Below are positions 1 to 35,592 of a stretch of DNA of 64,000 bases, piece after piece. The number at the start of each line of letters is the position of its first letter. The stretch's first letter is position 1. Under the pieces are notes generated by a model. It was not told the DNA's origin. It saw only the letters and a list, made by a program, of their open reading frames with translations, and did no database searches. A program made the position numbers and the translations under genes. Origin of the DNA: Thermodesulfobacteriota bacterium (GTDB lineage: Bacteria > Desulfobacterota_D > UBA1144 > Nemesobacterales > Mycalebacteriaceae); the NCBI GenBank assembly GCA_965226585.1, contig OZ245366.1:487423-551422 (forward strand), read 5' to 3'.

Positions 1-103
1 GAAATGTCAGGCCATGTCGATTCCACCTGTCAAAAATATACTTTAGTGTTTCCCTTGCCCCGTCTCTTACTATTTGAGTGTCAAACCTATTTGGTGTGCT
101 CAT
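1..103 (-). CDS. Partial CDS (N-terminus only; runs off the window start), hypothetical protein. Its start codon overlaps the Fic stop (ATGA).
   Basis: The reverse complement of bp 1-103 reads ATG AGC ACA CCA AAT..., giving MSTPNRFDTQIVRDGARETLKYIFDRWNRHGLTF... with no stop before the window edge. The ATG at 103-101 overlaps the TGA of the upstream Fic gene at 102-100. It is not in the ORF track because it is truncated. Confidence 0.3.
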   Translation of the reverse strand, partial: MSTPNRFDTQIVRDGARETLKYIFDRWNRHGLTF

Positions 104-1536
104 GTGTCACCCTTACATTCCTTGAGAATATCAAGAAACAAATGTTTGCCTTCAGCAAACAACTTTTTAACTTCTTCTTCGGAGTAGGGTTGGCTGTAGT
201 CCTTTTTCAAACCATTCACACTCTTTGCATTCAGTCCCTCTTTTTTAATTCTTAAACCTGTTTTATAACCGAGTTCTTCCAAAAAAAATGCTAACTTGCA
301 GTTGCAGTCAAAAGATCTATTTGCTTGGCCCATATATCCATAATATTGGTAATCTATTACGAATAAATTTCTTGCATGCCGTGAGATATACTCAAAATTC
401 ATAGTGAAGTTTTCTTTGATAGTATTAATTAGATTGTTTAGATTCTCATCCGTCAATTTAGCACCTTGGGAAATTGTTTGTAAGCATTTGTTAGAGTTGT
501 TCTCACTATAATTTTCATCCATTCTTGTTATTTCCAATGAAGTTTGCTCAAACAGGTCGCTATACACACTAAATTCTTTGATGAACATTTTAGAAGTCTC
601 TGCAAAACATTTATCAAATATTTCTGTGCAATTTGTCGGTGTGATTGGCACTTTTAACCCTGTTTCTTTTTGCTGTCGGATGAATTGCTGAGTTTCTTTA
701 TCAATGTCTTCAATCTCGCTTATATCTTCACCTTTTGCCGCCTTAACCCCAATCTCCAGCCAATAAACAAGAATGTTCCCAAGATATGTTGCAAGAGTAT
801 CCATATCTTCGTCATCCGCTTTCTGCAAAGCCGCAAAGTAGTTTCTTTTCTCTTCGCTCTTAATTACCAAAGGCGGGTAACCCAGTTTCAATAAAACATA
901 GTTCACCCACAGACGCACTACACGGCCGTTGCCGTCATCAAACGGGTGTATAACGATAAAGCGGTGGTGTAGTTCCGCGATAAAAGAAGCGATTGGCAGA
1001 GTCGGTTTTTCAATCTCATTGTTAAACCAATCCATAAGTTCATTCATTTTGGGAGAAACTTCCTGAGGTTCCGCAAACTTGAAAATCTCTCCCGTCTCTG
1101 TCCTTACGTGATTAGGTTGTGTCTTATACTGTCCGGGGATTATCTCTTTCTGAGTTTTTTGTCCGTCAGTAGTTTCCGCTTCTTTCCAGAAAGATTCTTT
1201 GAGAATAATTTTGTTCAAGCCCCTGATGTCGGCTTCCGTGAGATTTCTCTGTTTGTCTTCTGCAAACTCTCTGACTTTATCTATTGCCACATCGTGCGCT
1301 TTCATTTCCATATAATCGCGTTCAGGGTGAATTCCTTCCTCTTTTCCCTCAAGTATTAAGGCAACAGTTTCGCCGTAGGTAAGCGTATTCCCTTCAATGT
1401 GATTTGAATTGTAGTTCCACTCCAGACGGACTTTCTTATCAAACCGTTCCTTATCCTCCGGTTTAAGCGGTTGAATCTCCCGCCATTCCTTAAAAAGCGT
1501 TTCTATGCGTTTGTTAGTTTCCTGTAAAGACATCAC
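100..1536 (-). CDS. Fic/DOC family protein (class II Fic, putative AMP-transferase) with a roughly 190-aa C-terminal extension of unknown function
   Basis: It carries the canonical Fic motif HPFDDGNGR. An N-terminal SNHIEGN element matches the (S/T)xxxE(G/N) inhibitory-helix motif of class II Fic proteins. The coding DNA for the C-terminal third (about 100-700) is markedly AT-rich compared with the rest of the gene. Confidence 0.85.
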   Translation of the reverse strand: MMSLQETNKRIETLFKEWREIQPLKPEDKERFDKKVRLEWNYNSNHIEGNTLTYGETVALILEGKEEGIHPERDYMEMKAHDVAIDKVREFAEDKQRNLTEADIRGLNKIILKESFWKEAETTDGQKTQKEIIPGQYKTQPNHVRTETGEIFKFAEPQEVSPKMNELMDWFNNEIEKPTLPIASFIAELHHRFIVIHPFDDGNGRVVRLWVNYVLLKLGYPPLVIKSEEKRNYFAALQKADDEDMDTLATYLGNILVYWLEIGVKAAKGEDISEIEDIDKETQQFIRQQKETGLKVPITPTNCTEIFDKCFAETSKMFIKEFSVYSDLFEQTSLEITRMDENYSENNSNKCLQTISQGAKLTDENLNNLINTIKENFTMNFEYISRHARNLFVIDYQYYGYMGQANRSFDCNCKLAFFLEELGYKTGLRIKKEGLNAKSVNGLKKDYSQPYSEEEVKKLFAEGKHLFLDILKECKGDT

Positions 1537-2156
1537 TTCACTCCGGCTTTTGGTCTGTAATCCCTTTCGTCAATGCATCGGTCATACATATCCCTATCAA
1601 TCTTAATCCAATCCGTATCGTTTATTCCCCTTTTGTTTCTGCTTGCCGGGCCCACCGGAAACGCGCTTGCGATTTTAATCCAACGACTTTCCTTCCGTGC
1701 TATGTATCTAACTTCCTCCGCCACTTCGGACAAATCTTGATCTTGACTGAAGATAACTACAACATCACAGAGATTTTCAATTGCCGCCCTTGTAACATCA
1801 AGAGCGATTCTTATGTCAATTCCCTTCTCTCGCCCCACAAGTATTGGTGTGGAGTCATCCCGACTTGCATTTGAGTACTGGAGTTTTCTGGAGAAGACTT
1901 CTATTTCCGGGACTCTTCCCATAGCCGCCAATTTATTTTTCCAAAAAGCATGCCAATATGGGTCAACTTTTTCATCGGGAGTGCCGGTACAAAAGGTAAT
2001 TCCTGTTAGTTGCCATTTCTTGAGTTCACAGACTTTCTCCGAAAGTTTTTTGACTTCGTAGTTCGGGTATTTGTGTCCGAAAGCTTCCTTTGCTGAATGG
2101 AACAGATTTTGACCGTCAATGAAGAAACGGGCTCTTTTGATTTCGGGTTCAATCAT
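1533..2156 (-). CDS. NYN-domain (LabA/DUF88-like) putative ribonuclease
   Basis: FIDGQNLFH near the N-terminus and a KGIDIRIALD...VVVIFSQDQDL core are typical of NYN/LabA PIN-like nucleases. I placed the start at MIEPEIK (ATG at 2156-2154) because it is preceded by GGAGGTTT. The ORF-track start at 2246 has no RBS. The stop overlaps the Fic start (ATGA at 1533-1536). Confidence 0.7.
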   Translation of the reverse strand: MIEPEIKRARFFIDGQNLFHSAKEAFGHKYPNYEVKKLSEKVCELKKWQLTGITFCTGTPDEKVDPYWHAFWKNKLAAMGRVPEIEVFSRKLQYSNASRDDSTPILVGREKGIDIRIALDVTRAAIENLCDVVVIFSQDQDLSEVAEEVRYIARKESRWIKIASAFPVGPASRNKRGINDTDWIKIDRDMYDRCIDERDYRPKAGVK

Positions 2157-2315
2157 TGTTAAACCTCCAAAAAGCCAAAAAATAACCCCACTCAGAGGCC
2201 CGAAGGCAGGTCTGAGGGGGGGCAAATAGTTCAATATAAGTATCACCTGCCCTGAACATTGTCAAGAACGATGCCAAAGTTGACAAATTCCCCGATACAG
2301 ACATTTCCTTTACAA

Positions 2316-4112
2316 TCACTTTCCAGCCCCCAATTCCTTAAAAATCTTCCCGATTTCCCTGTCGCTTTTCTTTGCCTCTTTCTCAAGCATTGCCAGCTCC
2401 GCCCATATATCCGGTATTGAACGAAGAACCTCTTTCTCCGTTGTGTCTATGTAACGAGACGGCGAAAGGTTGTAGTCATTCTCCGCCGCCTTTTTGACGG
2501 TTATGACAGTTGAAAAACGCTCTTCCTCTTTCCATTTGGAAAAGACGTTCTCAATCCGCTTTGAACCCTCATCCGTCAAATGGTTCTTCGGGCTGACCTT
2601 TTTGAACTCGTTGCTCGCGTTGATAAGAACGATTTTCCGCTTTCTCGCGGCACTTTTGTTTTTATTCATAATGATTATGACACCCGCCGCCGCCGCATTG
2701 TAGAAAAGGTTGTCGGGAAGAAGGATTACGCCCTCAATCAAATCTTTATCAACAAACCATTTGCGTATTTTCTTTTCCTTGTCCTCTCCCGATGCCCCGC
2801 TTCCGCGTGTTACGGCTCCGGTGTCTATCACTACCGCCGCTCTCCCCCTGCTACTCATAGATTTTGCCGTGTGCTGAAGCCATGCCCAGTCCGCCTTTCC
2901 CGTTGTTGAACCGCCCTGCGACTCAAATCTGTCAAATTGGTCGTCTTCGTAAGTCCGGACATTAAACATCTGATTCCACATCGGATTGGCGACAACAATG
3001 TCAAAAGTCTGAAGCCCCCCCGTTTTATTGCGAAACTTCGGGTTCGTCATTGAGTTGCCCCGCACAATCTCACAGTCCATGTCGTGTATGATGGCATTCA
3101 TTCGCGCCATCGCGTAGTTGTCCGGTCCAAGTTCCTGCCCGGACAGTTTTAAGGGGATTCCCTTTTTCACATCGGGATAACGCTCGCGAAACGCAAGTTC
3201 GCACTTGATAAGCAGACCCGCAGACCCGCAAGCATAGTCATAAACGGTTTCGCCCTGAGTCGGCTTCATAATCCGCGCCATAAGCCACCCGACTTCCGTG
3301 GGCGTGAAAAACTCGCCCGCAGTCTTTCCCGAACCTTCCGCAAACTTTCTCAAAAGATATTCGTAACAACGTCCAATAAAATCCGGCTCCACATCGTGAA
3401 GACCAAGCCGGTATCTTGGCTTTGAAAACTTTTCTATTACTTCCTTGAGCGACTCGTCGCTTACCTCCCTCTCTCCGCCGGTTGTTTTGTTGTAGTCAAC
3501 AAGATCTATGACACCGTTTAACAACGGATTTCTTCTGGCGACCGCGCGCATCGTTGTAGTTATCTGCTCTCCCAGAGTTTTCGGCTTCTTTCCTTTCCGC
3601 CAGTTGAAACTTTTTCTGCCGCTCAGAACTTCCCATCTGGTTTCCGGCGGCAGATAAAAGTGGATGTAACCCTCTCCCCCGCTGACCATCTCCTCCGCCT
3701 CTTCCATACTCCCGAGTTTTTCCGCAATGCGGTTCATTTCGTCTTCAAACACATCCGAGAGGCGTTTGAGGAAAACGAGCGGAAGGAGAAAGTTTTTGAA
3801 CTGCGGCGCGTCTTTTTCACCCCTGATTGAACAGGCGGCGTCCCACAGCATCGTTTCCATCATCTTTCTGCTCAAAACATCTTGCCCGGTTTTGAGCCTG
3901 CGAACAGGCGATTCCGGGTCAGACTGTTCCGCTTTCTCCGCCATTGTCATTATTCTCTTGTGATACTTTTTGTGCGGAGACCGGCGTCCGTTTTCCCAGC
4001 CGTTCAGAGTGGAAAACGAAACGCCCAGCTTCGCGGCAAGGTTCTCCTGAGACAGATTCATCTTTTCTCTGATGCCCGCTATAATCTCTGATATGTTTTC
4101 TTTTTCCGCCAT
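2316..4112 (-). CDS. hsdM: N6-adenine DNA methyltransferase of the type I R-M HsdM family with an N-terminal XRE-type helix-turn-helix
   Basis: An HsdM_N-like region (MLWDAACSIRG...FLLPLVFLKRLSD) is followed by a SAM-binding motif (YDYACGSAGLL), the catalytic VANPMW (NPPY-type) motif and an HsdM C-terminal signature (YNLSPSRYID). The first 50 aa or so (LSQENLAAKLGVSFSTLNGWENGRR) look like an HTH_XRE. Confidence 0.8.
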   Translation of the reverse strand: MAEKENISEIIAGIREKMNLSQENLAAKLGVSFSTLNGWENGRRSPHKKYHKRIMTMAEKAEQSDPESPVRRLKTGQDVLSRKMMETMLWDAACSIRGEKDAPQFKNFLLPLVFLKRLSDVFEDEMNRIAEKLGSMEEAEEMVSGGEGYIHFYLPPETRWEVLSGRKSFNWRKGKKPKTLGEQITTTMRAVARRNPLLNGVIDLVDYNKTTGGEREVSDESLKEVIEKFSKPRYRLGLHDVEPDFIGRCYEYLLRKFAEGSGKTAGEFFTPTEVGWLMARIMKPTQGETVYDYACGSAGLLIKCELAFRERYPDVKKGIPLKLSGQELGPDNYAMARMNAIIHDMDCEIVRGNSMTNPKFRNKTGGLQTFDIVVANPMWNQMFNVRTYEDDQFDRFESQGGSTTGKADWAWLQHTAKSMSSRGRAAVVIDTGAVTRGSGASGEDKEKKIRKWFVDKDLIEGVILLPDNLFYNAAAAGVIIIMNKNKSAARKRKIVLINASNEFKKVSPKNHLTDEGSKRIENVFSKWKEEERFSTVITVKKAAENDYNLSPSRYIDTTEKEVLRSIPDIWAELAMLEKEAKKSDREIGKIFKELGAGK

Positions 4113-5985: not shown

Positions 5986-7896
5986 ATGAACGGAGAAAAA
6001 ATCTGCAACGTTATTGTGATAGGCGGCGGGCACGCGGGCTGTGAAGCCGCGCTTGCGGCGGCGCGCATGGGGCGCAAAACACTTCTGCTTACGGCAAATA
6101 TAGACACAATCGGCGTTATGTCATGCAACCCGTCCATCGGCGGGGTTGGCAAAGGGCATATCGTGAGAGAGATAGACGCCCTCGGCGGCGAGATGGCTAA
6201 AGCCGCAGACGCAAGCGCGATTCAATACAGAACACTCAACACACGCAAAGGCGCGGCGGTGCGCGCCACCCGCTCTCAGGCGGACAGACAGGTGTACAGA
6301 GCGCATATGCGCCGGGTTCTTGAAGAGTGCGAAAATCTTGACATAAAACAGAGAATGGTGGACGGATTTCTTGTTTCCGGGGATGAGGTGAAGGGCGTGA
6401 AAACAAGCCTCGGAGAAACCTTTTTCTCTGACTCCGTTGTCGTTACGCCGGGAACTTTTCCGAACGGGCTTATACACGTTGGAGACGAACGCTACTCTTC
6501 GGGACGCGCCGGGGAAAAAGCGGCGATGGAGATAACCGGCTCATTCAAAGACCTGGGGCTTGAAGTGGGCAGACTCAAAACCGGAACGCCGCCCCGCTTT
6601 GACGGCAGAACAATACGCTGGGACGCCCTTACAGAGCAGAAAGGCGATGAAAATCCAAGACCGTTTTCTTTCTCAAACACCCGGACAGGCATCAGCCAGA
6701 TGTCGTGCTACATCACGCACACAAACGGGAAAACGCACGAAGTTATCAGAAAAAACCTTTCCCGCTCGCCCCTCTATTCTGGCGTGATAAGCGGCGTGGG
6801 TCCGCGCTACTGCCCGTCCGTTGAAGATAAAATTGTGAAGTTTCCCGACAAAGACCGCCACCAGATATTTCTTGAGCCGGAGGGCAGAAACACCTACGAA
6901 GTCTATCCAAACGGCATATCAACCAGCCTTCCGCTTGACGTGCAGACGGAGATGTCCAGAACGATAGAAGGGCTTGAACAGGTTGAAATAATGCGCCCCG
7001 GATACGCGGTGGAATACGATTTTATAAACCCGACACAACTGAACTCGGCGCTTGAATGCAAACGCGCGCGAGGGCTTTTCTTTGCCGGGCAGGTGAACGG
7101 AACAACCGGATACGAGGAAGCCGCCGGGCAGGGGATTGTGGCGGGAATAAACGCCGCTCTGCACTCGCGCGGCGACAGCCCCTTTGTGCTTGACCGCTCA
7201 GACGCCTACATCGGAATCATGATAGACGACCTTGTTACAAAGGGCGTTGACGAGCCATACAGGATGTTCACTTCAAGGGCGGAATACCGCCTTGTTCTGC
7301 GCGAAGACAACGCAGACATCAGACTTATGGAAAAAGGACACCGCGCGGGGCTCATAAGCGATGAACGCTACGAGCGGCTTGTCATCAAAAAACACGCGCT
7401 CAAGAGTGAAGTGGAAAGACTTGAACAGACCCGCTGTGTTCCCGGAAGCCCGGCGGATTTGCAACTGAAACAGATGGGCTCATCGGCGCTGAAAAAACCG
7501 CAGTCGCTCGCAGAGATTCTCAGAAGACCCGCAATCACTTACTCTGAACTCGCCCTTTTTGACACCGTGTCCGCCGAACTCGCCGGTTCAGACACCGCCG
7601 CGCAGGCGGAGATGCAGGTTAAATACGCGGGCTATGTGAAGATGCAGACGGAACAACTCGGCAGGTTCAAACGGTTTGAACGCATGTCCATACCGGAAAC
7701 CTTTGACTACGCCAAAGTGTCCGGGCTTTCCAAAGAGATAGTTCAGAAACTTTCAAGCGCGAGGCCGCGCTCTCTCGGGCAGGCGGGGCGAATATCAGGC
7801 GTTACGCCCGCCGCCGTTTCGGTTCTTATGCTGCACCTGAGGAAAAATCCCGCAAGGGAAGGTCAGTCAACCATCTCGACATCTTCTTCCTCGTAG
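5986..7896 (+). CDS. mnmG: tRNA uridine-5-carboxymethylaminomethyl modification enzyme MnmG (GidA)
   Basis: The FAD-binding N-terminus NVIVIGGGHAGCEAALAAARMG and the MnmG-specific motifs are present. I placed the start at M36 of the track ORF (ATG at 5986). The upstream 35 codons are not conserved. Confidence 0.93.
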   Translation: MNGEKICNVIVIGGGHAGCEAALAAARMGRKTLLLTANIDTIGVMSCNPSIGGVGKGHIVREIDALGGEMAKAADASAIQYRTLNTRKGAAVRATRSQADRQVYRAHMRRVLEECENLDIKQRMVDGFLVSGDEVKGVKTSLGETFFSDSVVVTPGTFPNGLIHVGDERYSSGRAGEKAAMEITGSFKDLGLEVGRLKTGTPPRFDGRTIRWDALTEQKGDENPRPFSFSNTRTGISQMSCYITHTNGKTHEVIRKNLSRSPLYSGVISGVGPRYCPSVEDKIVKFPDKDRHQIFLEPEGRNTYEVYPNGISTSLPLDVQTEMSRTIEGLEQVEIMRPGYAVEYDFINPTQLNSALECKRARGLFFAGQVNGTTGYEEAAGQGIVAGINAALHSRGDSPFVLDRSDAYIGIMIDDLVTKGVDEPYRMFTSRAEYRLVLREDNADIRLMEKGHRAGLISDERYERLVIKKHALKSEVERLEQTRCVPGSPADLQLKQMGSSALKKPQSLAEILRRPAITYSELALFDTVSAELAGSDTAAQAEMQVKYAGYVKMQTEQLGRFKRFERMSIPETFDYAKVSGLSKEIVQKLSSARPRSLGQAGRISGVTPAAVSVLMLHLRKNPAREGQSTISTSSSS

Positions 7897-7991
7897 AATT
7901 CTCCCAGTTCGTTCAATTCCACGTCGCCGACATCCATTTCTTCAGGGTCGTCGTTTCCCGCGTAAACCTGCTCATCAGGGTCCTCAATCAT
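7863..7991 (-). CDS. Possible very acidic 42-aa micro-ORF overlapping the 3' end of mnmG on the opposite strand (speculative)
   Basis: The minus-strand ORF ATG...TGA encodes MIEDPDEQVYAGNDDPEEMDVGDVELNELGEFYEEEDVEMVD. It is below the ORF-track size cutoff. No RBS was evaluated. Confidence 0.12.
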   Translation of the reverse strand: MIEDPDEQVYAGNDDPEEMDVGDVELNELGEFYEEEDVEMVD

Positions 7992-8120
7992 ATTGACGAG
8001 GTCTCTGATTCTTTCGTCTCTTGAAGTAGCCACCTCAACACCCCCTGTGTTGTGATTTAACGGACAGAGCCCGTTTCCGCCCCCATAATATTGACGGACG
8101 GGGAAAAATCAACCCTTTTT

Positions 8121-10190
8121 TTAGTCCGCAATTGAAGCGGCAAAATCGTCCGCGCCGGAAGGAAGTCCGCACGTCCCGTCTTCGCACACATAGACAAGCG
8201 TTTTCCCGTTTCCGCCCGCAGAGCATCCGGCGGCAAAAGGGGCTATGTTGCCGGTCTCAGAGCAGTCCGGTTTTTTGAGCAGAACTGTTGCCCCCGGCTC
8301 GTAGTTTTTCGCGAGCGCGTCCGTAACTTTTTCCGCCCCGTCCGTGCCTTCGGCGATAACAACCTCAAATGTTTTTCCCGCGGCAAACTCAAGCGCGCAG
8401 AGAAGCATTCCGTGTGAAGACGGCAGTTTTTCAACCGACAGCGAAAGAGAGCGGGCAATTTTAGCGGCGTCCTCATCGTACCGGTGGTTTCCCGTCAGGC
8501 GGGATATTTTCATCAGGTTGAGAGCCGCAACCGAGTTTCCGCACGGAAGCGCGCCGTCATGAAACTCCTTTTTCCTCACTATCAGACTTTCCGCCCCCGA
8601 CGGGGTGAAGAAAAAACCGCCTTTTTCCTCATCAGAAAAAAGTTCAATCATCTTGTCGTTCAGCCTCATCGCGGTTTTAAGGCGCGAGATGTCAAACCCC
8701 GCTTCGTAAAGCTCAAGCAGTCCCCAGACCATAAACGCATAGTCGTCCAAGTTTCCCCTGATGGCGGCGTCTCCGTCTCTGAATCTGTGCAGAAGTTCAT
8801 TGCCGTCAAACATATTTGCGAGAATGAAATCCGCCGCAGTTTCCGCCGCTTCAACATATTCTTTCCGCCCGAAAGCTCGTCCCGCTTTTGAGAACGCCGC
8901 TATCATCAAGCCGTTCCAGTCGGTCAGAATTTTGTCGTCTTTGTGCGGACGCGGGCGTTTTTCTCTGCGTTCAAACAGCTTTTTCACCGCAGATTCAGTA
9001 AGCCGCTCCGCTTCGGTTTTGTCTGTGCCCGCAGTTTCCGCCGCAAAGGAAAGCGGTTTTGTTCTGTGCGGGATGTTGGTTCCGGGCATTTTTCCGGTCG
9101 CCTCGTCAACAAAGTTCCCGCCGCTTTTTATGGTAAAAACCTCCGCCGCAATGCGGGCTTCATCCGCTCCCGCCGTCTCTCTGAATTCCTCTTCGCTCCA
9201 TAGGTAGAACTTTCCCTCCTCGCCCTCGCTGTCCGCGTCTTCTGCGGAGAAGAACGCGCCGCCTGAAGCGGTCATGTCTCTCATGACGTATTCAAGCGTT
9301 TTTTCCGCGCCGTTTTTATAGGCGGGGTTTGAGGTGGCAAGCCACGCCTCGGTCAGGGCGGCGCAGATAAGCGCCTGATCGTGGAGCATTTTTTCAAAGT
9401 GCGGCACAAGCCACCGGCGGTCGGTTGAATACCTGTGAAATCCGCCCCCGATGTGGTCGTTTATTCCGCCGTCAAGCATGGAGCCGAGCGTTTTTTCAGC
9501 AACTTCAAGGGATTTGGCATCTCCGGTTCTTTTCCAGTGGCGAAGCAGGAATATCAGGTTTTGCGGAGAGGGGAATTTAGGCGCGTCTCCGAAGCCCCCG
9601 AAAACGGGGTCAAAAGCCGCCGCCAGAGTTTCCGCGCCGTTTTTCAGCAGATCCTCATTGCCCATGCGCCCCTCAGACTGCATCACCGCTTGAGAGTCTC
9701 TGATGGCAATCTCAATGTCTCCGGCGGATTTTTCTATGTCTGCGCGCCGGGAACTCCACACCTCTTTTATCTGCGGTATCAGTTCAACCATTCCGGCTCT
9801 GCCGTATCTGTTGTGTTTCGGTATGTAGGTTGCCGCGAAAAACGGTTTTTTGCCGGGCGTCATAACAACATTCAGGGGCCATCCGCAGTTTCCTCTTGAA
9901 ACTATCTGGCACACGCTCATCAGAACCCCGTCAATGTCCGGACGCTCTTCGCGGTCAACCTTGATGGAGATGAAAACATCGTTCATCAACTCCGCCACTT
10001 CCGGGTCTTCAAAAGACTCCTTTTCCATCACGTGGCACCAGTGGCAGGTTGAGTATCCGACTGAAACGAGAACGGGCTTGTCTTCGCGCGCGGCGGTTTC
10101 AAACGCCTCTCCGCACCAGGGGTACCAGTTCACCGGGTTGCCCGCATGCTGGAGAAGATAAGGGCTTTTTTCTTTTGAAAGTCTGTTCAT
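8121..10190 (-). CDS. Thioredoxin-domain protein of the DUF255/YyaL family (N-acylglucosamine-2-epimerase-like C-terminal domain)
   Basis: The N-terminus ([17 protein letters not shown]...[18 protein letters not shown]) is the DUF255 thioredoxin-like signature. The long alpha/alpha-toroid-like C-terminus is typical of YyaL. Confidence 0.8.
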
Positions 10191-23064: not shown

Positions 23065-23089
23065 TGGTATTCTACGGGAGGTAGTATTG

Positions 23090-23896
23090 ATGGAATTACA
23101 AAAGAAGAAGTCAATTGAAGCTATAGTTCGTTCTGCTGTGGAGTCGTACGCCGTAGGCTTTCAAGCACGCCATGAAGGAGAGGTTGATAATCCTTCTGGC
23201 GTCATCAATATGAAGGTTCATAATGTTTTTATTGAGGCACTTGGGAAAGATATTCAATACTACGCTGCACTTGTACGTTCTTTGGATAGTTCACTCGGAA
23301 ACATGCTTGAAAACATGGCAATCAACATAGCAAAGATGTCATTTGAGGTGAGAACCAATGTTGAAGGTCCGCTTGACCCATCTCAAACACGGAAGATTGC
23401 AAATATTCTGGAGAAGTACAAAAGTCGCAAGAAGGTACCGGCAATATCTGACTATAAGGGTTTGAGAAAACCCCCGAAGGGTGACAAGGCAAGTAAAAAA
23501 CGCCATGAAAGCGATTACTACTTGATTGATGACAAAAATGACAGTCACTATTTGATTGAACTGAAAATTGGCGGTGATCTGGATAACAAGAAAGCCCGTT
23601 CCGAGAAAGAGGCGATTTTAGAACAGTTTGCCATATTGTCTAATACTCTCCCACAAGATAAAGAAATTAAGATTTTCTTTGCAACAGGCTATAACCGCTT
23701 TGGTGAGAATCAGCCTTGGAAACAGGAGCGTGTTCGTCAGTTTTTTGCTGATGAAGAACTACTTGTCGGCAAAGATTTCTGGAATTTTGTATGTTGTTCA
23801 GATGACGGCTATCCTACCGTCATTAATACTTACAGAGAGAGTGCCCACTTGATTAACAAAGCACTCGAGTCGATAAAGAGGACTTATCTTGGCTAA
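23090..23896 (+). CDS. Putative type II restriction endonuclease (PD-(D/E)xK fold)
   Basis: It lies immediately upstream of, and overlaps, a DNA methyltransferase gene. A candidate catalytic motif is ...YYLIDDKNDSHYLIELK (D...ELK). It is AT-rich and its start has a GGGAGG RBS. Confidence 0.5.
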   Translation: MELQKKKSIEAIVRSAVESYAVGFQARHEGEVDNPSGVINMKVHNVFIEALGKDIQYYAALVRSLDSSLGNMLENMAINIAKMSFEVRTNVEGPLDPSQTRKIANILEKYKSRKKVPAISDYKGLRKPPKGDKASKKRHESDYYLIDDKNDSHYLIELKIGGDLDNKKARSEKEAILEQFAILSNTLPQDKEIKIFFATGYNRFGENQPWKQERVRQFFADEELLVGKDFWNFVCCSDDGYPTVINTYRESAHLINKALESIKRTYLG

Positions 23897-24659
23897 AAAA
23901 GTAGAAAAGAGTTATCAATTGCGTCTGGGGGATAGCCATGAATTGATAAAGCAAGTACCCACTTCTTCTGTTGATTTAATCCTTACAGATCCTCCCTATA
24001 ATCTAAGTCCTTATTCTACCGGCAACATTAAGATGTCTTGGCGAAAAGATTTGAACAACGATCTTGCGGACTGGGATAAGGTTGAATTCAAGCCGTCCGA
24101 ATGGGTCAAGGAGTTTAAGAGAATACTAAAACCAGAAGGAAACATTTTTGCCTTCTGTAGTTACAATCTTATTGGCAAATGGCACGAGGTTTTCGACCCT
24201 GAATTTGATACATTCCAATTTATGGTATGGCATAAAACAAACCCAGCACCCAAGATTCGTCGGGCGGGTTTCTTGAACAGTTGTGAAATGATAATTTGTA
24301 TGTGGAACAAAAACCACACTTGGAATTTTACAAATCAAAGAGATATGCACAACTTTATTGAAACACCGATTTGCATGGGTGTTGAAAGGATGAAAAAACC
24401 GAAACACCCTACACAGAAGCCAGTAAGGGTTTTAGAACATTGTATCAACCTTGCTTCGGTGGAGGGTGATGTTGTTTTTGACCCGTTTATGGGAGTTGGT
24501 TCAACAGGAATTGCCGCCCTCAATTTGGATAGGAAGTTTATTGGATTTGAAATAGAAAAAGAATATTTTAAGGCAGCAGAGAAAAGATTGGATGGTAAAC
24601 CTGCCAAACTAGTTTTTGATTGCGATAAGCAAACTTCACGTAAGGTAGGTGTATCATAG
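23889..24659 (+). CDS. DNA methyltransferase, beta-class (N6-adenine or N4-cytosine)
   Basis: The catalytic DPPYN motif comes first, then HPTQKP, then a C-terminal SAM motif FDPFMGVGSTGIAA. This order is typical of beta-class amino-MTases. It has a TTG start overlapping the REase end. Confidence 0.85.
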   Translation: MAKKVEKSYQLRLGDSHELIKQVPTSSVDLILTDPPYNLSPYSTGNIKMSWRKDLNNDLADWDKVEFKPSEWVKEFKRILKPEGNIFAFCSYNLIGKWHEVFDPEFDTFQFMVWHKTNPAPKIRRAGFLNSCEMIICMWNKNHTWNFTNQRDMHNFIETPICMGVERMKKPKHPTQKPVRVLEHCINLASVEGDVVFDPFMGVGSTGIAALNLDRKFIGFEIEKEYFKAAEKRLDGKPAKLVFDCDKQTSRKVGVS

Positions 24660-25278
24660 GGTGATTATAGACTTTCCTGAGGCACAAACATATATTGCCA
24701 AGATAATTTCACAATATGTCAATAGACAAATTCGTGAACGCTCTAAATTGCTTTCAATGATGAATCCGGTACATGTCGTACATGAGGGTGACAGAATTGG
24801 AATTCACCGTGAAGATGGGAGCCGTGAGTCTAAACCACTTACGCTTCATAAGAGTGAGGTCCAAATAACAGGTGATAATGGGGTTGCAATTGGAGCAGAA
24901 GAACTGGTAAAAGGTCTTGATGATATGGTCGGGGATATGTCTCGTCAACTTGAAAAAAGTGTTGTGAGTGGAATACAAGATATCGCCGAGAAAGGCGAGA
25001 ATACAGTCTCAGGCAGTATGGACAATATTGAAAGTATGCAAGATATGCTTCTTCAATCAATGGAGAATATGCATATTGATTTCAAAGATGGTGATCGCAA
25101 TAAGCCAATACTCCCAAGTTTGCTTGTTCACCCCACTATGGGTTCAAAACTCGCCGAACTTGCATCAGGAGAGACGCAGATACAAAAAGATAACTTTAAG
25201 GAACGCGAAAAAAAGATATTGGATGAAAAATATAAGGATTACATAAATGATATCAATTCTCGTATTATCGTAGATTGA
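24649..25278 (+). CDS. Hypothetical protein X (no recognisable domain), third gene of the R-M operon
   Basis: Its start overlaps the MTase stop, and it is followed 1 nt later by the next gene. It is AT-rich. The start codon is uncertain (GTG at 24649/24661, or ATG at 24757). Confidence 0.45.
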   Translation: MYHRVIIDFPEAQTYIAKIISQYVNRQIRERSKLLSMMNPVHVVHEGDRIGIHREDGSRESKPLTLHKSEVQITGDNGVAIGAEELVKGLDDMVGDMSRQLEKSVVSGIQDIAEKGENTVSGSMDNIESMQDMLLQSMENMHIDFKDGDRNKPILPSLLVHPTMGSKLAELASGETQIQKDNFKEREKKILDEKYKDYINDINSRIIVD

Positions 25279-25279
25279 T

Positions 25280-26896
25280 ATGTGCAGTAGTAACAATCAA
25301 AATAGAGACCCTTTTTTACAGAGAGCTATTGAATACTGGCTAGATTCTGCAAACGAACTTGGCTATCAGCCACTTTTCTGTGAGTCATTGATAAACAAAG
25401 GGTATAGTCTCAAATATTCAATTAAAAATACGAGTTTTGAACAGGGAAAGGATGTTGTTGCAGTTGATTCTGAAGGAATACCCCATGCTTATCAATTAAA
25501 GGGTGGAAAGATAACTTTGGATAGGTGGAGAAGAGAAGTTAGACCTGAGATAGAGGCATTAATTGATTGTCCAATAGAGCATCCTGAAATTAAAAAAGAA
25601 GACATGCATGAGTCTCACCTCGTTACTAATGGTGAGTTAGATGATAGTGTTAGGGTTGAAATAAATAGCCTCAATTCCAAGAAATGGAAGGAAACTCCTC
25701 TGCGTTTAGAAACAAGAGGGGATTTGCTAAGTGCTTTTCAGAAAATGGCAGAAGGGATGTTTCCTATTGATGCGCAAATGTACAGACAAATTGTTGATTT
25801 AATGTTTGTGGATGGAGAGGGTTCTCCTAATCTGGATCGAGTAAACAATTTTCTTGTTGGGATTCTACAAATAAACAAAGACGGTAAAGTTCCAAAAGAG
25901 CAGAGGAAAAGAGATATAGCGGCAGCACTTCTTTACTCAACAATTTTTGTAGGGCATTACAGAAAAATGGAAAACCATATTTCCGTTGTCCGGATAATGG
26001 TTTTGTTGCTTTCTCTAATCTTTCATTTAGTCGACAAGCATAATCTTGAAGACAAGTATTGGATTGATTCCTACAAAATCATCTGGAATGACATTGTTGA
26101 AACATTAAAATTATTAGAAGGTGAAATTAAAGATGGTTCTCTTCATAGAATTCCTGAAGACCCTCTGAAGAGTGGACTCAAGCAATTTAGAGAGCATGGA
26201 GCAGTTTCCCTCCTGCTTTCCCTTCAATTGGCAGAATGTATCTCAAACAAAGAAAAACGTAACGATATAGTTGATTACTTAACTCAAGTAGATATAAACA
26301 AACATATTTTACTCTGGGGAGAATCTTCTTTAGTCCCCTACATTTTTATGTCGTTGATATTAAAGGTTCAAGAACCAAAATTCGCGTCTGATATTTTGAA
26401 AAATGCAGCATTAGAGATAATCAGACATAATGGAAGAACATCTAATGAAAAACTAGGTCTGCTTTCTCCTTATTATGATATAGATTATGCAGTAAAAATA
26501 AAATTCGATTTGTTGGAGAAAGAATTCGAGGATCATACACCTCTGCATTCTTATTTTTTAAATCCTCTCGTTCACCTGCTTGCAAGATTTCAAGAAAGAG
26601 CTTTTCTTTCTAGTGTTTGGAAGGAGATTTCCTTCATATATTTTGAAGAGTTTGTATTTGATAATAACATAGACTATTACCTTTGGAGATCCCAAAGAGG
26701 GGAAAATCTTACCACCGCTCCACAGAAACAGCAAAGTTGGTCGGATCTAGAGAATAAATCTTCTCAAACCAGTAGTGATATGCCTCCGAAAACGATGCAA
26801 AGATTTCCAGAATTTTTACCACTTTTCCTCTCAGTATTTCCTTTCAGATTAAATTCTCAAACACTATGTTTTTTGGACAGTCAAATTAATGGCTAA
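25280..26896 (+). CDS. Hypothetical protein Y with an N-terminal Mrr/NERD-like PD-(D/E)xK nuclease signature and a large C-terminal helical domain
   Basis: The N-terminal segment GKDVVAVDSEGIPHAYQLKGGK fits the D-x(n)-E/Q-x-K pattern of Mrr_cat/NERD restriction-endonuclease-like domains. The remaining roughly 420 aa have no recognisable motif. Confidence 0.5.
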   Translation: MCSSNNQNRDPFLQRAIEYWLDSANELGYQPLFCESLINKGYSLKYSIKNTSFEQGKDVVAVDSEGIPHAYQLKGGKITLDRWRREVRPEIEALIDCPIEHPEIKKEDMHESHLVTNGELDDSVRVEINSLNSKKWKETPLRLETRGDLLSAFQKMAEGMFPIDAQMYRQIVDLMFVDGEGSPNLDRVNNFLVGILQINKDGKVPKEQRKRDIAAALLYSTIFVGHYRKMENHISVVRIMVLLLSLIFHLVDKHNLEDKYWIDSYKIIWNDIVETLKLLEGEIKDGSLHRIPEDPLKSGLKQFREHGAVSLLLSLQLAECISNKEKRNDIVDYLTQVDINKHILLWGESSLVPYIFMSLILKVQEPKFASDILKNAALEIIRHNGRTSNEKLGLLSPYYDIDYAVKIKFDLLEKEFEDHTPLHSYFLNPLVHLLARFQERAFLSSVWKEISFIYFEEFVFDNNIDYYLWRSQRGENLTTAPQKQQSWSDLENKSSQTSSDMPPKTMQRFPEFLPLFLSVFPFRLNSQTLCFLDSQING

Positions 26897-26945
26897 TTCA
26901 GGAGGTTGCCAAATTTGTCTTTTTCCCGGCATTGTTTTAGGTATT

Positions 26946-28037
26946 TCACCCCATCTCATACCCCGTACTCCTTCCGCCTTCTTTGCTTTTCTTTAATATC
27001 TTCAACTCAATCAGCGCGTTAATATCCCTTTGCGCGGTGTCTTGGGAGCATTTTCCCATCTTTGCCCACTTTGACGAAGTGAGTTTGCCCTTGAAGTTTC
27101 CGTCCAGAAGCAAGTTCAAAATCTTTGTCTGCCTGCTGTTGAAAGGCACCTCAGCGTATTCCTCCCAAAAACGCGCCTTATGCAGGATTGCCGACAGCAT
27201 TTTGTCGGAACCCGCTATGGAACGTTTGAGACAACCCAGAAACCAACTCAGCCATTTTGTAATATCAACTCCGCTGTTTTGCGTTTCCTCAAGCTGTCTG
27301 TAGTAGTCCTGCCTCTCTTCCATTATCTGCGTGGACATACTGTAAAAACGTTGCGATGTTTCCTCGGAACGGGCAAGAGCCATCTCCGCTATCGCCCTTG
27401 TTGTGCGCCCGTTCCCGTCATCAAACGGGTGGATAATTACAAACCACAGGTGAGCAACCGCCGCTTTAATCACCGGATCCATTGAAGACGGCGAGTTAAA
27501 CCACGAAAGAAAATCATCCATCTCCTTCGGAACCCGCTCTGCGGGCGGAGCAACAAAATGAACCCTCATCCTTCCCTCGCGCCCCGATACAACCTGAACT
27601 CCGTGAGTACGCCACTTTCCGGTTGTTATCTTGTGAAAACCACTGCGCCCGTCCGGGAAAAGAGAAGCGTGCCAGCCGAAAAGCCGCTTTTTTGTGAGCG
27701 TTTTGTCAAAATTTGTTGTGGCGTCAATCAGTATCTCCACTATGCCGTCCACCTCACGCCCGTACGGTTTGCCCTCATACGTATCTATTCCCAAACGCCG
27801 CGCAACGGATGAACGAACCTCCTCAACATCAAGAAACTCCCCCTCAATTTCACTGGTTTTGATAATCTCTCCCGACAGAGTCCGGAAAGCGGCGTCACGC
27901 CTCAGATTAAAACCGAGACCGCTCATGCGTCCCAGCAAAAGCCCCTGCGTGCGGTGAACCTCCGCCAAAAGAGCAGACAACTCGCCGTCATCCCACTTCA
28001 AAAGGGGCCAACCCTTTTCTTCCCATAAATACGGCAT
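26946..28037 (-). CDS. Fic family protein (DUF4172-type N-terminus, C-terminal winged-helix domain)
   Basis: It carries the Fic motif HPFDDGNGR and an inhibitory-type motif TSEIEGE, with a C-terminal wHTH (KILNLL...SSKWAKMGKCSQDTAQRDINAL). I placed the start at MPYLWEE (ATG at 28037, RBS AGAGG). The 14-codon extension in the ORF track overlaps the operator-like repeats. Confidence 0.85.
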   Translation of the reverse strand: MPYLWEEKGWPLLKWDDGELSALLAEVHRTQGLLLGRMSGLGFNLRRDAAFRTLSGEIIKTSEIEGEFLDVEEVRSSVARRLGIDTYEGKPYGREVDGIVEILIDATTNFDKTLTKKRLFGWHASLFPDGRSGFHKITTGKWRTHGVQVVSGREGRMRVHFVAPPAERVPKEMDDFLSWFNSPSSMDPVIKAAVAHLWFVIIHPFDDGNGRTTRAIAEMALARSEETSQRFYSMSTQIMEERQDYYRQLEETQNSGVDITKWLSWFLGCLKRSIAGSDKMLSAILHKARFWEEYAEVPFNSRQTKILNLLLDGNFKGKLTSSKWAKMGKCSQDTAQRDINALIELKILKKSKEGGRSTGYEMG

Positions 28038-28046
28038 ATTGTGAAC

Positions 28047-28212
28047 CTCTGCGGAGATTAATGTTGCTATTCTCCGCATATTTTGCGGAGAATATAGCCC
28101 GCATTCACCGCAAAATCAACCTTAATCTCCGCACATTCTGCGGAGATTAGCAATTTCTATGACTCATAATTTGGGGGTTTTATGAGTCATAGAACAGTTT
28201 CCTATGACTCAT
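28047..28212. promoter_or_regulatory. Cluster of three perfect palindromes plus half-sites in the Fic 5' region
   Basis: The first palindrome is ATTCTCCGCA-tattt-TGCGGAGAAT (28069-28093). The second is TAATCTCCGCA-cattc-TGCGGAGATTA (28123-28149), with a half-site TGCGGAGATTA (28050-28060) overlapping the Fic RBS. The third is CTATGACTCATAA-N10-TTATGAGTCATAG (28157-28192), with a third CTATGACTCAT copy at 28202-28212. Confidence 0.55.
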
Positions 28213-32771: not shown

Positions 32772-32843
32772 GAGCGCGTAGCTCAGCGGGAGAGCGCTTG
32801 CCCGACACGCAAGAGGTCGCTGGTTCGATCCCAGCCGCGCTCA
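32772..32843 (+). tRNA. tRNA-Val (anticodon GAC inferred); no CCA encoded
   Basis: It folds as GAGCGCG-TA-GCTC-AGCGGGA-GAGC-G-CTTGC-CCGACAC-GCAAG-AGGTC-GCTGG-TTCGATC-CCAGC-CGCGCTC-A. The loop CCGACAC gives GAC at positions 34-36, but position 33 is C instead of the near-universal U. Confidence 0.75.
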
Positions 32844-33280
32844 TGGAGGGAAATCTATTGCTAAAGGATTACCAAGAAAGGACAGATTTTGGGTACATAT
32901 TTCCCGCCAAGAGAAAGGACGGAAGTATGATTATGCTTGTCAGATTTGGAAGACATGATGGGAAGGGGTATGACTTTGAGCTACATTGTATATCTGCCGA
33001 ACACCACAAGGAATGGTTAAAATTAGGACACGCACCATCAGACATTAAGACTGTTAGGCAACACGTCAGTGTTAGTCCACATTGGGAGGACAGCAGTAAG
33101 TGGGTAGTAACTGATGTATCTGCGGATTACGACCAAAAAATTGTAGACTCAAGGGAAGATGCTTTTGCTGAGGCAATTCGTGCAATGACGGAAGATGATG
33201 ACCCTATAAGGGAAAAGATTCCCGATGTTAATCACAGTATTAAATGGTGGATGGATGAAACCGCAAAGTTTGATTGGTGA
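32843..33280 (+). CDS. Hypothetical protein P1 (island cargo)
   Basis: This AT-rich ORF begins at the last nt of the tRNA (MEGNLLLKDYQ...). An alternative start is MIMLVRF at 32927. No recognisable domain was found. Confidence 0.4.
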   Translation: MEGNLLLKDYQERTDFGYIFPAKRKDGSMIMLVRFGRHDGKGYDFELHCISAEHHKEWLKLGHAPSDIKTVRQHVSVSPHWEDSSKWVVTDVSADYDQKIVDSREDAFAEAIRAMTEDDDPIREKIPDVNHSIKWWMDETAKFDW

Positions 33281-33282
33281 AA

Positions 33283-33948
33283 ATGAACTCAGATCTTATA
33301 GAAGTCATCACAACTTACGCTACCAAGTCTCACGGAGACCTGAATGCCTTGTTATCTGGAAAGTCAAAAGACAACATCACTTCTATTCTTGTTGACCTTC
33401 TCACCACTTACTACAATGACAAAAACTCATCAACTTTAAGAGAGTTTGTTCTGGTGTCCCTGAGTGGTTTTGAACAGAACCTCGGTAAAATCGGCTATAA
33501 CGGTTACAAGCATGAGAGTATTGGTAGCAAGACAAAATATTGCGAAGCGAAACCCAAGAATGTCAACACAAACGATCCGAAGCCAAAGAAGCTGAATGGC
33601 GGGGGAAACTTTACGGACTACACTTGGGCGAGACTGGAAAAAGATAAGTCGTCTAACCCAACAATGCTTGTTGGGGGCTTTATAGACGGACGCCTGATTT
33701 ACATATTCAAGTTTCCTTTCAATTCAAAGGATTTTGTTGATAGGCTGGAGCACCAGTTAAAAAACAAGTTTCCTGACGGAGACGTAAGTGGATACTTTCT
33801 CAGAAGTGCTTCTTTTGGCTTAAAACACTACAAAAGTATTGCTAATTTGGATGTTGAAGTTTTTGTAAAAGAGCAAGATTTACCTAAATATGAAAACAGC
33901 ATTACAAAAGGGTTATACTCTTTCATAGAGGAGTCCTTTACCGAATAA
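33283..33948 (+). CDS. Hypothetical protein P2, possible restriction endonuclease partner of the downstream methyltransferase
   Basis: Its start is 2 nt after the P1 stop, and its stop overlaps the MTase ATG (TAATG). It is AT-rich. A possible PD-(D/E)xK-like segment GYKHESIGSKTKYCEAK is present. There is no secure domain call. Confidence 0.4.
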   Translation: MNSDLIEVITTYATKSHGDLNALLSGKSKDNITSILVDLLTTYYNDKNSSTLREFVLVSLSGFEQNLGKIGYNGYKHESIGSKTKYCEAKPKNVNTNDPKPKKLNGGGNFTDYTWARLEKDKSSNPTMLVGGFIDGRLIYIFKFPFNSKDFVDRLEHQLKNKFPDGDVSGYFLRSASFGLKHYKSIANLDVEVFVKEQDLPKYENSITKGLYSFIEESFTE

Positions 33949-34829
33949 TGGAACTCAAGCCTGAACAGTACAGAAACAAACTTATATGTGGTGATACTTT
34001 CGAGGCTTTGCGGTCAATCCCAAACGGTGTTGTAGATGTTGGTGTAACCTCTCCTCCATATAACAAGAAAGAAAAAAACAAGGGCTGGTTGGTAAAGAAT
34101 GTTGTCTACTCTGAATACAAGGACAAAGTTCCTGAAAACAAGTATCAGGCAAATCAAGTTGCTGTTTTGAACGAAATCCACCGTATAACCAAAAGCGATG
34201 GGTCTTTTTTCTATAATCACAAAATCAGGTGGGAAGATGGAGAGATGTTTCACCCTATGGATTGGTTGAGAAAGACCGATTGGGTTGTTAAGCAAGAAAT
34301 CATCTGGGATAGGACTATCGCCGCGAATATAAGAGGGTGGAGATATTGGCAAGTTGAGGAGAGGATTTACTGGCTTTACAAGCCGATTGGTACAAACAAG
34401 AAAGGGAGAGAGCTGGCATCAAAGGATGCAAAGTTAACCTCAGTGTGGCGAGCAGTTCCTGAAAACAACAATCCTCATCCCGCTCCTTTTCCCCTTTGGC
34501 TTCCGGCAAGGATCATCATTTCACTTTTAGAAGGTAAAAAAAGCGGTCTTGTTTTAGACCCGTATGTTGGTAGTGGCACAACTGCGGTTGCCGCAAAATT
34601 GCTCGGCTTTGATTATCTGGGTGTGGATATTGGAGAGGAGTACATTGACTACGCTGAAGAACGTCTTGCAAATGCTGAAAGAGAAAGAAGCAAGATTATG
34701 GGTGAGCAGAGCCTTCATAAAGTCCACAAGACCTTTAAGTCCAGAAAAGAAAGGGGAGAAAATACTGGCAAATATCGTAAAGAGGAAGAATCTAACAAGC
34801 CTCTAACACTCTTTGAGCATAGGAAATAG
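33948..34829 (+). CDS. DNA methyltransferase, beta-class (SPPY motif; N4-cytosine or N6-adenine)
   Basis: VGVTSPPYN comes first, then a C-terminal SAM motif LDPYVGSGTTAVAA. Its size and layout match beta-class amino-MTases. Confidence 0.85.
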   Translation: MELKPEQYRNKLICGDTFEALRSIPNGVVDVGVTSPPYNKKEKNKGWLVKNVVYSEYKDKVPENKYQANQVAVLNEIHRITKSDGSFFYNHKIRWEDGEMFHPMDWLRKTDWVVKQEIIWDRTIAANIRGWRYWQVEERIYWLYKPIGTNKKGRELASKDAKLTSVWRAVPENNNPHPAPFPLWLPARIIISLLEGKKSGLVLDPYVGSGTTAVAAKLLGFDYLGVDIGEEYIDYAEERLANAERERSKIMGEQSLHKVHKTFKSRKERGENTGKYRKEEESNKPLTLFEHRK

Positions 34830-35520: not shown

Positions 35521-35592
35521 GGCCCCGTAGCTCAGGGGGAGAGCGTTCGCCTCACACGCGAAAGGTCGTTGGTTCAATTCCAACCGGGGCCA
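35521..35592 (+). tRNA. tRNA-Val (anticodon CAC); no CCA encoded
   Basis: It folds as GGCCCCG-TA-GCTC-AGGGGGA-GAGC-G-TTCGC-CTCACAC-GCGAA-AGGTC-GTTGG-TTCAATT-CCAAC-CGGGGCC-A. It is preceded by TTGACA (35482-35487). Confidence 0.85.

Follow-up and report, generated by a model that had tools for sequence, protein, structure and literature searches.

A Predicted Two-Gene Nuclease Cassette Adjoining a TdeIII-Family Restriction-Modification Pair in an AT-Rich Block

In Escherichia coli K-12, the mrr and mcrBC genes flank hsdRMS. Other genes are embedded in type I restriction-modification (R-M) operons: PrrC, RloC, Abi-type genes, and TgvAB of Vibrio cholerae VPI-2 (PMC11411939). Type II R-M systems of the TdeIII family (T. 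denticola TDE0911; PF09520) consist of a restriction endonuclease gene followed by a DNA methyltransferase gene in the same orientation, the class of the partner methylase varying within the family. TdeIII itself is a type II enzyme in experimental use (PMC12878829). We analyzed a window of 64,000 nucleotides, the whole stretch of DNA considered here, in which a pair of this type, R and M, is directly followed by two genes of an unannotated kind, X and Y (table 1). On balance, we favor the reading that these four genes form a small defense islet, in which two independent modules, a type II R-M system and an X-Y cassette with a predicted nuclease, are packed head to tail.

Table 1. Features of the AT-rich block and of its right neighbor (positions are those of the window).
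Feature	Position	Strand	Basis or remark
AT-rich block, four genes	23065..26945	.	GC 0.379
R, TdeIII-family type II restriction endonuclease, 268 aa	23090..23896	+	Pfam RE_TdeIII; D...ELK
M, beta-class N6/N4 DNA methyltransferase, 256 aa	23889..24659	+	N6_N4_Mtase; overlaps R by 8 nt
X, 205 aa, mostly helical, partner of Y	24661..25278	+	Start GTG 24661, 1 nt past M stop
Y, 538 aa, uniform unannotated family	25280..26896	+	Starts 1 nt past X stop
Y nuclease domain, predicted PD-(D/E)xK, Mrr/FokI type, residues ~10-160	25307..25759	+	Fold and invariant residues
Y all-alpha superhelical domain, residues ~165-538	25772..26893	+	Model; own invariant residues
DUF4172+Fic gene, SoFic-like, right neighbor	26946..28079	-	Family matches; GC 0.505, host-like

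R matches the Pfam family RE_TdeIII (PF09520) with an E value of 3e-40 (138.7 bits for a cut-off of 27.2). Its start is ATG 23090, preceded by the ribosome-binding site GGGAGG; the mechanical ORF begins upstream, at TTG 23027. M matches Pfam N6_N4_Mtase (8e-41, 140.8 bits) and the PADLOC model MTase_II (5e-58). The motifs named in a first-pass annotation of this DNA can be read in the translations, PD-(D/E)xK motif D...ELK in R and, in M, DPPY (residues 34-37) followed by FDPFMGVGSTG, which is the beta-class order. The closest solved relatives of M in the PDB are adenine methyltransferases (DpnA-type, 2e-39; CcrM, 3e-32), and M is probably an N6-adenine methyltransferase. The family matches bear out the earlier recognition of a type II pair, and R and M are predicted to constitute a conventional type II R-M system. 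R is 55% identical to an annotated TdeIII-family endonuclease of the Psychrobacter plasmid pA3H9. The latter is partnered with a D12-type methylase, in place of the beta-class enzyme of this block, and has no X-Y beside it, which counts against the initial proposal that X and Y are obligately tied to the R-M genes.

ORF translation confirmed the four packed genes, all on the plus strand. The GC content of the block compares with a mean of 0.519 (SD 0.029, minimum 0.426) for 3.9-kb segments elsewhere in the 64 kb, and the block is therefore the composition extreme of the window. Each gene contributes to this bias (R 0.408, M 0.389, X 0.387, and Y 0.354). The description of an AT-rich block between GC-rich flanks holds for the block but not for the truncated globin gene on its left, which is of intermediate composition (0.428). 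On the right, the DUF4172+Fic gene is convergent with Y and lies outside the AT-rich block; it is a possible defense neighbor, not a member of the block. As first noted, the ORFs of the block include no integrase or transposase gene. We found no direct repeats flanking the block, and its surroundings revealed neither meaningful repeats, direct or inverted, nor an integrase or an adjoining tRNA. Promoter-like and terminator-like sites occur in numbers no different from those in shuffled sequences.

The coordinates agree with the 8-nt overlap of R and M and with the single nucleotide between X and Y (TGA-T-ATG) given previously. Conversely, the 11-nt overlap described for M and X is probably wrong. 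A longer X ORF opens at 24649 and shares the end of the shorter one. As the N-terminus MI/LxDFP is present in all 26 aligned X homologs and the database gene call is of 205 aa, we placed the start at the GTG codon, immediately behind the M stop codon and its 1-nt spacer. This 1-nt junction is also compatible with a functional coupling to R-M in this genome. The close packing of the four genes may well result in co-transcription, which would make the block a defense islet rather than an obligate four-part machine.

A word-indexed homolog search with X alone returned X only, and a profile of locus-derived homologs was used instead. The Y family is represented by ~1,500 clusters at 50% identity in bacteria and archaea. 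Of 93 other loci, 92 encode X immediately ahead of Y, and these are all the loci with room upstream. Among the first 33 loci, the two genes are either separated by 2-10 nt (with a 1-nt overlap at L001) or overlap by 35-56 nt, as in translationally coupled bicistronic pairs whose smaller gene comes first. The pairwise identities of X and Y are correlated (r = 0.92), although at intermediate distances X is the faster of the two to diverge. [quoted passage not shown] Some copies are degraded, by frameshift or deletion. Y is absent from the phage and viral collections. Cultured carriers include Flavisolibacter longurius BT320, Algoriphagus taiwanensis JCM 19755, and Rhodococcus qingshengii, in which the pair is borne by plasmid pdjl-6-4. 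Taken together, the pairing and distribution characterize X-Y as a putative self-contained, horizontally mobile two-gene cassette.

The first-pass annotation had proposed a single restriction-type system with R, M, X, and Y as its four components, in which X-Y would act only with this R-M. The tight junctions (an overlap of 8 nt, then 1 nt, and again 1 nt), the low GC content common to all four genes, the lack of a detected internal terminator, and the location of X-Y directly behind the modification genes of three type I operons are consistent with this proposal. However, the arrangement is not syntenic in other X-Y loci, and the claim therefore fails: a TdeIII homolog is missing from all 94 other loci, and a homolog of M is found only once, 5 kb away. 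Most X-Y pairs lack an R-M neighbor, ~90% of the loci lying outside R-M operons. X is the sole gene conserved next to Y, and the R family is found with another methylase and without X-Y. We consider an obligate four-gene system highly improbable and retain the reading of two independent modules.

In agreement with their initial description as proteins of no known function, X and Y have no significant match in Pfam, NCBIfam, PHROGs, or PADLOC; the only weak, sub-threshold matches were LbR_Ice_bind (0.006) and phrog_22463 (0.025). PADLOC-DB v2.0.0 returned no family at E <= 0.1 for either protein; Hachiman, Gabija, and Shedu, none of whose component models matches at this threshold, were rejected as identities of X and Y. 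Profiles of X and Y compared with PDB sequences yielded chance-level matches only, and we found no paper describing the pair. Dallas and ldgA, derived from Patescibacteria (PMC12366544), are described as clade-restricted or as devoid of nuclease domains and have no obvious correspondence to X-Y.

The AlphaFold model of Y (pLDDT 89.9) shows the core fold of PD-(D/E)xK nucleases, including conserved acidic residues and the (Q/E)xK motif. It resembles the Mrr/MspJI/AspBHI type, with the motif D...QxK. Residues E26, E54, K57, D58, and Q72-L-K74 are fully or almost fully conserved, and E54, D58, Q72, and K74 are kept in 100% of 211 sequences that are 19-57% identical to the Y of the window; D58, Q72, and K74 are predicted to be catalytic. 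By fold and motif, the N-terminal part of Y is a predicted Mrr/FokI-type PD-(D/E)xK DNA-cleavage domain. The suggestion that X and Y hold a nuclease module stands for Y, from its fold and invariant motif. Neither the Y of the window nor any of 52 relatives matches Mrr_cat (PF04471) at E <= 0.05. Its cut-off is passed only by the distant homolog on the Rhodococcus plasmid (22.8 bits for a cut-off of 21), which is annotated as "restriction endonuclease" and was matched with an hmmsearch E value of 3.5e-25. The helical domain has its own invariant residues (N232, R304, E348, W447, W487, and R523). It gave generic helical-repeat matches and no specific structural match, and may be a regulatory or partner-binding domain.

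With the whole chain of Y, Foldseek found no match in the PDB at E < 0.05, and with the nuclease domain the best match was NucS/EndoMS. This match, and the presence of DnaE, RecG, SmpB, and FtsH genes among the core, replication, and repair neighbors of several loci, would be in keeping with a housekeeping or DNA-repair role outside conflict systems, Y being a NucS/EndoMS-like nuclease and X an accessory factor. Such a role appears very unlikely to us, as the likeness to NucS is confined to a generic PD-(D/E)xK core of 120 residues, the distribution combines a patchy cross-domain pattern with up to 57% identity across distant phyla, the copy in the window is of foreign composition, some copies are frameshifted or deleted, and the neighborhood is not conserved.

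Defense genes are found beside X-Y in at least 11 of ~55 distinct loci (raw count), recurrently and in unrelated genomes. The defense-type neighbors comprise three type I R-M embeddings and SIR2-HerA-like, UvrD/NERD, GmrSD_N, Abi_2, retron-type PRTase, OLD-like, and AAA_15/21 genes. Two of the type I operons have the order hsdM-hsdS-X-Y-(SLFN-type ATPase or Abi_2)-hsdR (L015 and L019). In the third, hsdM-hsdS-X-Y (L037), hsdS and X overlap by 4 nt and the contig ends there. One locus reads Integrase-X-Y-SIR2_2-DUF87 (L096), and two belong to islands with HNH, RES, HSDR_N, AAA_15/21, UvrD, and GmrSD_N genes (L098 and L099). A NERD/UvrD helicase and a SIR2-like protein (L024), a retron-type PRTase (L030), and, on the Rhodococcus plasmid, an OLD-like endonuclease and a DEAD helicase are encoded near other pairs. 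Many loci, especially in Patescibacteria, have housekeeping neighbors only. Judged from gene neighborhoods, the defense-island signal of X-Y appears real, though not universal.

X-Y recurs within R-M loci or next to them, and once near a GmrSD_N gene, which might suggest a type IV (modification-dependent) restriction enzyme of two subunits, with Y as the Mrr-type cutter and X for specificity or as an adaptor, in loci of the "immigration control" style. The Mrr/MspJI/AspBHI-type fold and D...QxK motif of Y, the Mrr_cat match of its distant member, and the arrangement of mrr and mcrBC around hsdRMS in E. coli K-12 count for this reading. We nevertheless regard it as rather unlikely: no modified-base reader (SRA, PUA, Mrr winged helix, or DUF3427) and no NTPase were found in X or Y, the domain order of Y is opposite to that of Mrr, and the same fold is used by many modification-independent nucleases, among them FokI, NucS, and HamA. 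That X-Y follows modification genes at this type II locus and at three type I loci could also denote an Mrr-type nuclease complex that guards R-M and fires when R-M is disabled or overwhelmed, for instance by anti-restriction proteins. The logic would be that of PrrC with EcoprrI, the proteins being unrelated, and we find this idea quite doubtful. In a weaker variant, X-Y would be a new family of anti-phage systems with a mechanism of its own, widespread among Patescibacteria and Bacteroidota.

The conserved features of X are its N-terminus MIxDFP, a HEG motif, and a C-terminus SRKhVD. Its structure model is of low quality (pLDDT 69) and gave no informative match to a known fold, so that any role ascribed to X is a guess. 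A selfish toxin-antitoxin pair devoid of phage defense, with X as labile antitoxin and Y as DNase toxin, would be maintained by post-segregational killing and horizontal transfer. A bicistronic layout in which a small upstream gene overlaps a larger nuclease gene, the housekeeping contexts in the very small genomes of Patescibacteria, the plasmid copy, the faster divergence of X at intermediate distances, and the pseudogenised copies would all suit such a pair. On the other hand, no DNA-binding domain typical of type II antitoxins (HTH, RHH, or AbrB) was detected in X, within the limits of its poor model, 205 aa is large for an antitoxin, and to be found time and again inside type I R-M operons and defense islands is more typical of defense genes. 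A purely selfish pair is therefore unlikely in our opinion. Many toxin-antitoxin systems also defend their hosts.

Within the favored islet of two independent modules, X-Y probably represents a new module with an anti-phage or toxin-like function. We propose that X binds Y, probably at the helical domain and possibly through its conserved termini. Bound X would keep the Y nuclease inactive, or would target it. Upon an infection cue or the loss of X, Y may oligomerize and cut DNA, whereupon either the invader would be restricted or the infection would be abortive. Should this be validated, X-Y would be a nuclease-based defense or toxin-antitoxin system whose regulatory partner is new; otherwise the finding would come down to an ordinary R-M islet. 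The existence of cultured carriers makes the pair experimentally accessible.

X-Y is a sizeable protein-pair family outside Pfam, NCBIfam, PHROGs, and PADLOC. Compared with the Mrr type IV endonucleases and the AF1548 structure (PDB 1y88), Y has its nuclease at the N-terminus instead of the C-terminus, and no N-terminal winged-helix DNA-binding domain as in Mrr was found; what it has instead is a helical domain of 370 aa, together with an obligatory partner of 200 aa. The Y of the window also gives no sequence match to Mrr_cat. Unlike the type IIS enzymes FokI and N.BspD6I, X-Y has no FokI-type sequence-specific recognition domain, and a methylase is missing at most loci. It differs from other systems with PD-(D/E)xK effectors, Hachiman HamA, Shedu, Lamassu LmuA/Cap4-type, and Can2/Card1, in the absence of PADLOC matches (E <= 0.1) and of a helicase, SMC, or CARF partner, and from PrrC, RloC, and TgvAB in having no ABC-ATPase, anticodon-nuclease domain, or DUF262/DUF1524. 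Like these last systems and Abi-type genes, X-Y is embedded in type I R-M operons, between hsdS and hsdR at two loci and directly after hsdS at the third, and two of the three loci adjoin another embedded defense-type gene, Abi_2 or an SLFN-type ATPase. This habit of residing inside type I R-M operons and defense islands is typical of immune genes.

The AT-rich block at 23065–26945 has a GC content of 0.379, compared with an average of 0.519 (SD 0.029, minimum 0.426) for equal-size windows elsewhere in the 64 kb. The compositional anomaly reported in the first-pass annotation is therefore real. The block is bordered by a truncated-globin gene on the left and by a convergent Fic gene on the right. 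The globin flank, previously described as GC-rich, has a measured GC content of only 0.428. The Fic gene encodes a DUF4172+Fic protein matching the PADLOC SoFic model (2e-51). As its GC content is host-like (0.505), it lies outside the imported block; it may be the marker of a defense-prone site. The ORFs of the block include no integrase, as already stated, and neither flanking repeats nor an adjacent tRNA gene were found around it. Promoter-like and terminator-like sites within the block are at background level only. The 8-nt overlap between R and M and the 1-nt spacer between X and Y are directly visible in the sequence. The 11-nt overlap initially proposed between M and X is doubtful, as it hinges on the GTG codon at 24649. 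X homologs all start with MI/LxDFP, and X has 205 aa in the public gene call; its most likely start is therefore GTG 24661, 1 nt past the M stop codon.

Features of the window and, where a locus handle is given, of the loci collected for comparison
Feature	Positions	Strand	Source or content
Truncated-globin gene	end 23064		left border of the block
R	23090-23896	+	ORF list
M	23889-24659	+	ORF list
X	24649 or 24661 to 25278	+	ORF list
Y	25280-26896	+	ORF list
Fic gene	26946-28079	-	right border of the block
tRNA-Val	32772-32843
Putative islet	33274-34829	+	GC 0.43-0.47
tRNA-Val	35521-35592
Low-GC stretch	1-2000		GC 0.403
L015	2568-12276		hsdM-hsdS-X-Y-(SLFN/AlbA_2 ATPase)-hsdR
L019	2194-11752		hsdM-hsdS-X-Y-Abi_2-hsdR
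L037	18-4820		hsdM-hsdS-X-Y; hsdS/X overlap 4 nt; contig end before any hsdR
L085 (metagenome contig)	1005-2407		X and Y matches ~0.5 kb apart
L094 (metagenome contig)	544-2762		X and Y matches ~1.5 kb apart
L002 (Lewinellaceae MAG)	7657-8989		Peptidase_M15_3, Glyco_hydro_108+PG_binding_3

Two other regions of the window have a low GC content, one at its very start and the other between two tRNA-Val genes. In the latter, a 224-aa ORF without sequence relative in the PDB overlaps by ATGA the gene of a 293-aa N4-cytosine methyltransferase (SPPY...DPYVGSGTT; 2e-43 against PDB 8s9n). This region has the appearance of another small islet resembling an R-M system, and the two tRNA-Val genes suggest an insertion hot spot.

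The R-M pair of the block is an ordinary module belonging to an already known family. R matches Pfam RE_TdeIII (3e-40), and M matches Pfam N6_N4_Mtase (8e-41) and PADLOC MTase_II (5e-58); the motifs previously cited for both proteins were found in their translations. The nearest solved relatives of M are adenine methyltransferases, DpnA-type and CcrM. TdeIII is a functioning type II enzyme of T. denticola (PMC12878829). The Psychrobacter plasmid pA3H9 encodes a relative of R, 55% identical and annotated as a TdeIII-family enzyme, followed by a D12-type adenine methylase unrelated to M; X and Y are absent there.

Relatives of Y are numerous: 74 by word-indexed search and 1,503 cluster representatives by exhaustive HMMER search, including 691 at E ≤ 1e-30. 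Nearly all the representatives are 510–570 aa long and match end to end. We gathered 94 further loci through exact look-up and scans of genomes and metagenomes, with plasmids as an additional source; as L095 was obtained via R and is devoid of X-Y, 93 loci bear Y. Among their hosts are the bacterial groups Patescibacteria, Bacteroidota, Acidobacteriota, Ignavibacteria, Gemmatimonadota, Clostridia, and Actinomycetota and the archaeal groups Bathyarchaeia and Methanosarcinales; for Thermodesulfobacteriota, only an X homolog was seen. Carriers of the cassette include F. longurius and A. taiwanensis. According to profile searches of six-frame ORFs, an X homolog directly precedes Y in 92 of the 93 loci, and in the remaining one Y sits at a contig edge. 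The two genes are separated by 2- to 10-nt spacers in the close clade (L001 has a 1-nt overlap) and overlap by 35–56 nt in the distant clade. Pairwise identities of X and Y are correlated (r = 0.92), X diverging faster than Y at intermediate distances. In two metagenome contigs (L085 and L094), the X and Y matches are set apart; DNA inserted between them, or a mis-assembly, may account for this. No R homolog was found in any collected locus, a window-type M is present only once, at a distance of 5 kb, and no third gene is conserved beside X-Y in these loci. By the synteny criterion that the first-pass annotation itself set, the four-gene system is refuted, and X-Y stands out as a two-gene cassette. 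That the four closely packed genes of the window form an obligate R-M-X-Y system is extremely improbable.

Three of the collected loci (L015, L019, and L037) carry X-Y within a type I system, directly after hsdS; in L015 and L019 it is accompanied by a further embedded gene of defense type. The hsdR gene of L019 consists of two ORFs, probably as a result of a frameshift. Since these type I systems are distant relatives of one another and their Y are 27–50% identical to that of the window, X-Y was inserted independently in each. Other loci display diverse neighbors: integrase-X-Y-SIR2_2-DUF87 (L096), islands with HNH_5, RES, FRG, HSDR_N, and AAA_15/21 or with a UvrD helicase and GmrSD_N (L098 and L099), a NERD/UvrD helicase and a SIR2-like protein (L024), a retron-type PRTase (L030), a PHP-SMC-like ATPase at a further locus, and, on the Rhodococcus plasmid pdjl-6-4, an OLD-like endonuclease together with a DEAD helicase. 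In the window, the neighbors are the TdeIII R-M pair and the SoFic-like Fic. X and Y are obligatorily linked and co-diverging, horizontally mobile, and recurrently found in defense loci. No copy of the cassette was found in the phage and viral collections searched. In L002, the genes directly downstream of X-Y are endolysin-like, so the locus may adjoin a prophage remnant.

Against a defense role speak the many X-Y loci of Patescibacteria and Acidobacteriota that have housekeeping neighbors only. Several copies of the cassette harbor frameshifts or internal deletions, as expected for dispensable accessory genes, and a housekeeping nuclease is a very unlikely reading of X-Y. Among the degraded copies, Y is reduced by an internal deletion to ~120-aa N- and C-terminal pieces in three Vicinamibacterales loci (L033, L088, and L089) and is frameshifted in L080 and L083; X is recognizable upstream in every one.

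The AlphaFold2 model of Y, based on a 52-sequence alignment, is confident (pLDDT 89.9, pTM 0.76). In the structural comparison, it scored highest with AF1548 (10.6), the FokI cleavage domain (10.2), and N.BspD6I (10.1), followed by MspJI (8.9), AspBHI (8.7), NucS (8.6), Hna (8.4), and HamA (6.9). Foldseek likewise retrieved NucS (probability 1.0) and no whole-chain counterpart. The modeled order of helix (E26), strand, strand from D58, strand to Q72-L-K74, helix, and strand corresponds to the canonical core. Among 211 full-length relatives (19–57% identical to the window Y), E54, D58, Q72, K74, and N232 are invariant, and conservation reaches at least 97% for E26, G56, K57, R304, E348, W447, W487, and R523. 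The distant member encoded by pdjl-6-4 matches the Y profile (3.5e-25), exceeds the Mrr_cat cut-off (22.8 vs. 21 bits), and is annotated as "restriction endonuclease"; the gene upstream aligns with the profile of X (hhalign probability 98.1%, E 1e-13). Y contains a conserved and apparently catalytically competent nuclease domain of the Mrr/FokI type. In X, the best-conserved parts are the N-terminal end (MLPDFP), an HEG motif, and the C-terminal end (R-K-L-V-D); conservation of both ends would fit their docking into a partner protein.

We lean toward a two-module reading, in which X-Y is a nuclease-based conflict system; what this reading says on structure and synteny is almost certain, and a defense role for X-Y is likely. 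X would bind Y and hold it back or direct it, and an infection cue or the loss of X would switch on DNA cleavage by Y, which would probably oligomerize before cutting, like FokI-type domains. A pure addiction module is an unlikely reading of the cassette.

The mechanism predicted for this conflict system resembles that of other PD-(D/E)xK-effector systems. X-Y shares with Mrr the catalytic fold and a liking for R-M loci. However, the window Y does not match Pfam Mrr_cat, and its domain order is opposite to that of Mrr; no recognized reader, NTPase, or helicase partner was found for X-Y. That the pair is a two-subunit type IV restriction enzyme is accordingly doubtful. Neither X nor Y matches any model in PADLOC, Pfam, NCBIfam, or PHROGs. 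The literature searched contained no report describing the pair, and a recent naming is possible. Although the four-gene architecture dissolves, a large, unannotated, and testable X-Y family remains.
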